A stretch of DNA of 64,000 bases from assembly GCF_017348835.2 (NCBI RefSeq), contig NZ_CP071375.1; one strand, 5' to 3'. The translations under genes and the position numbers were made by a program. Source of the stretch: Escherichia coli. GTDB lineage: Bacteria; Pseudomonadota; Gammaproteobacteria; Enterobacterales; Enterobacteriaceae. The notes under the pieces are model-generated. The model was not told the DNA's origin. It ran no database searches and saw nothing but the letters and a program-made list of their open reading frames with translations. Every line of letters begins with the position of its first letter. Within the stretch, counting starts at the first letter, position 1. This document shows positions 8,967-9,301 of the stretch, piece after piece.

Positions 8967-9301
8967 TGGTTTATCCCCGCTGGCGCGGGGAACTCGTACT
9001 GACGGATAAAAATAATATCTTTTGCGGCGGTTTATCCCCGCTGGCACGGGGAACTCGTAGGGAACGAGATTCAGAAACGCCGCCCGGTTCGGTTTATCCC
9101 CGCTGGCGCGGGGAACTCTGCCGAACCGCGTTTTGTATTTGCACGGTACTCGGTTTATCCCCGCTGGCGCGGGGAACTCCACTCTTCATCCTCCAAATCA
9201 GCAACCGCGTCCGGTTTATCCCCGCTGGCGCGGGGAACTCATGCGCCGCAGTGTTGCAAAAGAGTTACAGCACGGTTTATCCCCGCTGGCGCGGGGAACT
9301 C
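8967..9301 (-). CRISPR. CRISPR array, type I-E repeat, 6 repeats / 5 spacers
   Basis: 29-bp repeats CGGTTTATCCCCGCTGGCGCGGGGAACTC (reverse complement of the canonical E. coli I-E repeat) at 8967, 9028, 9090, 9151, 9212, 9273; spacers 32, 33, 32, 32, 32 bp. Repeat 1 has T at position 1 and repeat 2 has GCACGG for GCGCGG. Confidence 0.97.

Follow-up and report, generated by a model that had tools for sequence, protein, structure and literature searches.

The stretch of Escherichia coli DNA analysed here (64 kb in full, referred to below as the window) carries, between the genes ygcE and queE, a type I-E CRISPR array with its leader and the relic of a second, smaller array. The features are listed in window coordinates, with the basis of each assignment in brackets; PE164 (NZ_CP114128.1) and F2_81 (NZ_CP043542.1) are the two E. 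coli genomes whose array and spacer set are identical to those of the window.

6851-8329, plus strand: ygcE, FGGY-family sugar kinase, left boundary of the CRISPR-II locus (open reading frame; annotation in PE164, F2_81 and K-12)
8375-8464, minus strand: CRISPR2.2 relic, two degenerate repeats around one 32-nt spacer (mismatch scan; same in K-12)
8465-8966, no strand: AT-rich separator of 0.5 kb between CRISPR2.2 and CRISPR2.3 (99% identity to K-12; G+C 24-35%)
8967-9301, minus strand: CRISPR2.3 array, six 29-nt type I-E repeats and five spacers (repeat match and spacing; 'CRISPR' annotation in PE164 and F2_81)
9302-9639, minus strand: CRISPR2.3 leader, AT-rich, from the queE stop codon to the first repeat (98% identity to the K-12 CRISPR-II leader)
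9640-10311, minus strand: queE (ygcF), right boundary of the CRISPR-II locus (open reading frame; annotation in PE164, F2_81 and K-12)

The type I-E repeat GAGTTCCCCGCGCCAGCGGGGATAAACCG (29 nt) is matched six times in the 64-kb window, always on the minus strand, with starts at 8967, 9028, 9090, 9151, 9212 and 9273. These six matches have 0-1 mismatches, compared with 0 matches expected by chance (100 dinucleotide shuffles). Four of the six copies are exact and two are single-base variants: the copy at 9028-9056 carries a C to T change at repeat position 11, in the stem, and the terminal copy at 8967-8995 has its last base changed from G to A. The start-to-start intervals are 61, 62, 61, 61 and 61 nt, and the five intervening spacers, all mutually different, are 32, 33, 32, 32 and 32 nt long. 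An identical 335-bp stretch is labelled 'CRISPR' by NCBI PGAP in two E. coli genomes, PE164 and F2_81. An earlier note on this DNA had placed six 29-bp repeats in the reverse complement of the I-E repeat at 8967-9301, which is correct to the base, and the five spacer strings are exactly as it gave them; the repeat matches confirm its assignment as a minus-strand type I-E array with five spacers, and alignment of the repeats with the I-E consensus, which it saw as the point where that assignment could fail, did not refute it. The one-base variant repeat at 9028 and the CRISPR2.2 relic at 8375-8464 were absent from that note.

A stem of 7 bp capped by a GCCA loop is predicted for the repeat RNA (-15.1 kcal/mol, z -3.6), and this predicted hairpin has the stem-loop form recognised by Cas6e. 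In the C11U variant repeat (9028-9056), the predicted stem is kept via a G-U pair. No CRISPR-repeat family of Rfam scores the repeat at either gathering or E-value thresholds; only two chance matches (Chlorobi-1 and anti-hemB) appeared, well below threshold. Tandem Repeats Finder gave no report on the array, as is expected when the spacers are unrelated to one another. A 150-aa ATG open reading frame on the plus strand (8963-9415) spans the entire array and runs into the leader; it was rejected as a gene, being a mechanical artefact of the G+C-rich repeats that is unannotated in related genomes.

A 2.5-kb query around the array matches 5,422 of 5,426 complete E. coli genomes, always in the order queE, CRISPR, ygcE. 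The queE gene is co-oriented with the array and located upstream of its leader, whose identity to the K-12 CRISPR-II leader extends over 338 nt, with 2 substitutions in the repeat-proximal ~190 nt. The G+C content of the leader is 27-31% (27% for 9302-9480), compared with 51% for the whole window. A consensus promoter scan of the leader and array gave no clear signal, with 6 promoter-like sites versus 3.9±1.9 expected, and a terminator scan of the same two elements found none. The repeats of the CRISPR2.2 relic, at 8375-8403 and 8436-8464, have 6 and 5 mismatches to GAGTTCCCCGCGCCAGCGGGGATAAACCG and a spacing of 61 nt; they were sought with a degenerate-repeat threshold of ≤11 mismatches, at which ~0.005 matches are expected by chance. 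K-12 has this relic at the corresponding position, and its spacer there is identical. Some 90 nt beyond the terminal repeat, at ~8851-8879 on the minus strand, there is a possible decayed repeat (ATAGTTCCCCATGCCAG…), which matches 13 of 16 bases of the repeat 5' half and is conserved in K-12; we do not claim it as a repeat relic, as it fails the ≤11-mismatch threshold and is not significant alone.

In the literature, CRISPR-II consists of CRISPR2.3 with its own leader and a small CRISPR2.2 some 0.5 kb off, beyond a separator of that length (PMC3903273; PMC10910852), and leader 2.3 is conserved even in E. coli strains without cas (PMC3903273). The position between ygcE and queE, the conserved leader 2.3 and the presence of CRISPR2.2 ~0.5 kb toward ygcE identify the locus in the window as E. 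coli CRISPR-II. The CRISPR-II locus of K-12 MG1655 (NC_000913.3, about 2,903,400-2,904,750) has the same flanking genes and orientation and an identical terminal repeat (…AAACCA), and its region toward ygcE, including the separator and CRISPR2.2 with its spacer, is 99% identical to that of the window. However, K-12 CRISPR2.3 has 6 spacers as opposed to 5, none of them common to both, and its repeats start with GTG… instead of GAG…. In PE164 the entire ygcE-queE intergenic region is identical to the window, and the differences lie elsewhere in the window.

The leader on the queE side and the degenerate terminal repeat on the ygcE side make the spacer at 9241-9272 the newest (leader-proximal) and that at 8996-9027 the oldest, the polarity that the earlier note had proposed from the degenerate repeat at 8967 and a putative leader beyond 9301. 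It is supported by the K-12-like leader and, independently, by strain Combat11I9, whose CRISPR2.3 shares one of its nine spacers with the window: the shared spacer is window spacer 1, the leader-distal one, and it occupies the same terminal position, as this polarity predicts. Spacer 1 also matches CRISPR arrays in at least five further strains, with 100% identity in two and 96.9% in three. The full spacer set occurs in only two of the 5,426 complete E. coli genomes, PE164 and F2_81, and spacers 2, 3 and 5 match nothing outside these two among the 5,426. The comparison with other CRISPR2 arrays suggested in the earlier note thus places the whole set in PE164 and F2_81, one spacer in Combat11I9 and none in K-12.

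Over 61,521 bases, 6 mismatches and 1 gap separate the window from PE164 (pig, China), an identity of 99.989%; for F2_81 (pig, Australia), there are 14 mismatches over 61.5 kb and the identity is 99.977%. The MFS transporter gene yqcE (5620-6824) is split into open reading frames at 5620-6267 and 6294-6824; both PE164 and F2_81 have it annotated as a pseudogene with a frameshift, whereas the K-12 gene is intact. An IS3-family insertion sequence at 26440-27759, which contains an ALIL programmed-frameshift pseudoknot at 26784-26900, interrupts gudP, and PE164 and F2_81 carry this insertion too. RNA genes at 30360-30719, 48900-49105, 52120-52162 and 53590-53883, all above Rfam gathering scores, comprise csrB, gcvB, the ES036 sRNA and three identical tRNA-Met genes (metZWV), which is ordinary for this region of E. 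coli. By annotation transfer, the window further contains mazEF, relA, barA, the fuc operon and recBD.

The window contains no cas open reading frame, as the earlier note had stated. A tblastn search of the window with all eight K-12 Cas proteins (E≤1e-3) gave no match, and the annotation of the 99.99%-identical genomes has zero cas genes across the stretch equivalent to the window; the same search picks up the divergent cas3 and casA of the relatives, so its sensitivity is adequate. This cas-free window is the normal architecture of the locus and not an anomaly, since the cas-E operon is found by iap, ~20 kb from the array, in a direction in which the window covers only 9 kb. In K-12 the cas operon is ~17-26 kb from CRISPR2.3, on the ygcE side. 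In the relatives it adjoins the other array near iap, where the earlier note had expected it, ~10 kb past the left edge of the window.

In PE164 and F2_81, the iap-cysH locus contains a hok/Gef gene, cas3, casA, a 35-codon casB stub, a truncated cas2 and the CRISPR2.1 array, while casC, casD, casE and cas1 are absent. Their cas3 and casA are of the E1 variant, with 25-29% protein identity to K-12, and their operon is thus a truncated cas-E1 operon, in contrast to the complete cas-E2 operon of K-12; the E1 and E2 variants have been described (PMC3903273; PMC10910852). The truncation results from an internal deletion, with casB codon 35 now fused to cas2 codon 23, and the remaining cas2 aligns only from residue 23 (residues 23-94). 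In PE164 this region (L001 26281-26920; junction ~26386-26389) lies ~12 kb left of the window start, and the CRISPR2.1 array that follows the deletion has 4 repeats of the GTGTTCCCC… type. PE164 alone carries an IS3 element at the cas3 5' end, a copy 99.6% identical to the IS3-family element in gudP.

About half of the complete E. coli genomes (2,733 of 5,426) carry cas-E1 sequence, and the full deletion junction is found in only PE164 and F2_81; strains with an intact operon align up to the junction and then continue elsewhere. As the same casB'-'cas2 deletion is present in isolates from China and Australia, it is older than their split. The cas status of the source genome is inferred from these close relatives, which differ from it by 6-14 substitutions in 61.5 kb; with their deletion, the source genome would have no Cas6e, no Cascade backbone and no Cas1. 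Judged from these sequences, the array is probably inert in the lineage of the window, where it could be neither processed, used nor extended.

The spacers, all on the minus strand, and their matches are as follows.

8996-9027, minus strand: spacer 1, oldest, crRNA sense CCGCAAAAGATATTATTTTTATCCGTCAGTAC (32/32 with an ATG PAM in IMG/VR contig UViG_3300011584_000016)
9057-9089, minus strand: spacer 2 (33 nt), no match outside PE164 and F2_81 (phage, plasmid, genome and metagenome searches)
9119-9150, minus strand: spacer 3, no match outside PE164 and F2_81 (same searches as spacer 2)
9180-9211, minus strand: spacer 4, crRNA sense GACGCGGTTGCTGATTTGGAGGATGAAGAGTG (32/32 with an ATG PAM in Escherichia phage D6)
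9241-9272, minus strand: spacer 5, newest, crRNA sense TGCTGTAACTCTTTTGCAACACTGCGGCGCAT (32/32 with an AAG PAM in IMG/VR contig UViG_3300011584_000016)

The searches against phages, plasmids and E. coli genomes that the earlier note had suggested, extended to metagenomes, thus gave 32/32 protospacers for three of the five spacers. The PAM of type I-E systems is AWG, 5' of the protospacer, and all three identified targets have such a PAM (ATG for spacers 1 and 4, AAG for spacer 5), as predicted for an I-E system. The protospacer of spacer 5 lies within a 548-aa baseplate gene of UViG_3300011584_000016, a P2-like myovirus contig, and that of spacer 1 in the portal gene of the same contig; a second IMG/VR contig also matches spacer 1. 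The protospacer of spacer 4 is at the orf95/orf96 junction of phage D6, a P1-like phage-plasmid in which the PAM was read. Spacer 4 further matches 31 PLSDB plasmids of E. coli and Salmonella at 100% identity, those listed being mostly 87-97 kb, and the lambdoid phages phiV10 and HK629 at 30/33. For spacers 2 and 3, INPHARED, PLSDB and the 5,426 E. coli genomes (blastn, E≤1) gave no match other than in PE164 and F2_81, and neither did scans of IMG/VR, JGI metagenomes and GTDB genomes; the IMG/VR scans used full-length patterns and 23-nt PAM-proximal patterns with N at every sixth base.

Spacers 1 and 5 are a record of earlier exposure to a P2-like myovirus, and spacer 4 of exposure to either a D6/P1-like phage-plasmid or a lambdoid relative. 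Self-targeting was considered and rejected, as no spacer has a match outside the CRISPR arrays on the chromosome of PE164 or F2_81. Plasmids of the two relatives were considered as carriers of the D6-like target of spacer 4: PE164 has one plasmid (IncFII, 41.7 kb), which is not of the P1/D6 type by name, and neither, by name, are the three F2_81 plasmid records inspected, Col (9.7 kb), FIB (82.9 kb) and HI2 (274 kb). The array thus has the repeat, the regular and unique spacers, the predicted hairpin and the AWG-flanked protospacers in mobile elements that define a type I-E array.

The protospacers of spacers 1 and 5 are on the same strand and ~20 kb apart on UViG_3300011584_000016, a 32.9-kb contig encoding tail sheath, tape measure, baseplate, tail fibre, portal and large terminase. 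Its 2.8-kb portal-terminase segment has 94.5% identity to prophages in seven complete E. coli genomes. In one of these, S1-KEN-03-A, the segment belongs to a P2-family prophage inserted between mipA and yeaE, with a P2-type capsid, GPO scaffold, gpM and ogr/Delta as markers. The spacer-1 site of this prophage has 3 mismatches and retains the ATG PAM; at the spacer-5 site there are 8, most of them spaced by three bases, and the PAM is AAA. The oldest CRISPR2.1 spacer of PE164, outside the window, is matched 32/32, next to an AAG PAM, by the major capsid gene of the P2-family prophage of S1-KEN-03-A (L016 24712-24743). By these sequence matches, three spacers over the two arrays of the lineage are aimed at one phage type. 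Among complete E. coli genomes, 275 match a fragment of the contig, of which 8 match most of the fragment, as prophage; most of the other 267 appear to match only a 40-nt terminase stretch (L010 1295-1334 of UViG_3300011584_000016) via their own CRISPR arrays, as all seven listed matches of this kind do. I-E spacers of E. coli thus seem to be directed commonly at this P2-like phage.

We propose that CRISPR2.3 and the CRISPR2.2 relic make up E. coli CRISPR-II, a second I-E spacer bank without cas genes of its own, which is now probably a fossil; we put the probability of this reading at about 0.93. The mechanism is taken from the textbook I-E pathway, whose structural prerequisites in DNA were found: the repeats, the predicted hairpin, the leader and PAM-consistent protospacers. 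Transcription of the minus strand would proceed from the AT-rich leader (9302 and beyond), giving a pre-crRNA that Cas6e would cleave at the base of every repeat hairpin (7 bp). Cascade would take up the 61-nt crRNAs, find protospacers beside an AWG PAM and recruit Cas3 to degrade the target, while Cas1-Cas2 would insert new spacers at the leader-repeat junction (9301/9302). All of these proteins would come in trans from the cas-E operon, which adjoins iap at a distance of ~20 kb. The lineage deletion, which takes all of casB but 35 codons, the whole of casC, casD, casE and cas1 and the first 22 cas2 codons, would leave the array as a probable fossil.

If a complete cas-E operon were present just outside the window, the array would instead be a working part of an intact I-E system. 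The cas locus of the source genome lies ~10 kb beyond the window, cas-E1 sequence is as widespread in E. coli as described above, the leader-nearest repeats are perfect and the newest spacer has the canonical AAG PAM, all of which suit a working system. We nevertheless consider it unlikely, given that the only two genomes with the spacer set, 99.98-99.99% identical to the window, both carry the casB'-'cas2 deletion; moreover, transcription of the array is silenced by H-NS in K-12, and such silencing is reported even for intact E. coli systems (PMC10910852). The contrary view of the locus, in which the repeats are a REP/BIME-type family or a chance periodicity and not CRISPR at all, is refuted by the six near-perfect matches where 0 are expected, by the fixed 61-62-nt period, by the identity of spacers to phage DNA with correct PAMs and by the RefSeq 'CRISPR' annotation.

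The conservation of CRISPR-II and its leader in strains without cas (PMC3903273), together with an intact array in a lineage with a broken cas operon, could also suggest that the array is kept for a Cascade-independent role, for instance as a regulatory transcript or through cas-targeting spacers as proposed for orphan I-F arrays in E. coli. However, the spacers match no chromosomal site of PE164 or F2_81 beyond the CRISPR arrays, spacers 2, 3 and 5 are unmatched elsewhere in the 5,426 E. coli genomes and so have no cas or other host-gene target there, and slow neutral decay explains the persistence of the array equally well, with 6-14 substitutions per 61.5 kb between these genomes; such a role is highly improbable. 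A longer history, with repeated and possibly primed adaptation to one P2-like phage, subsequent loss of the machinery and perhaps retention of the array for a Cascade-independent role, has very little probability. The protospacers argue only weakly for priming, because a same-strand pair is expected by chance half the time and the third protospacer is on the opposite strand.

The reading of CRISPR-II as a second spacer bank, now probably fossil in this lineage, draws on a locus whose architecture, conservation without cas and temperate-phage bias are already known. The bias of E. coli spacers to temperate phages and elements has been published (PMC3903273; PMC10910852), and the targets found here, a P2-like prophage and D6/P1-like phage-plasmids, agree with it. 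The cas-E-less E. coli of PMC3903273 likewise keep CRISPR2.3 and its leader without a working cas-E set. The main arrangements described there (Almendros et al. 2014) are complete IS-mediated cas removals, whereas PE164 and F2_81 have lost only an internal part of the operon, with cas3 and casA retained. Specific to this sequence are the spacer set of a rare pig-associated lineage and, outside the window, the lineage-specific internal deletion of cas-E1. The spacer set is a precise lineage marker, present in two of 5,426 genomes, those of a Chinese and an Australian pig isolate. The finding has little importance beyond strain typing and leaves current understanding unchallenged; it is a further documented example of an E. 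coli I-E array that has persisted beyond its cas operon.
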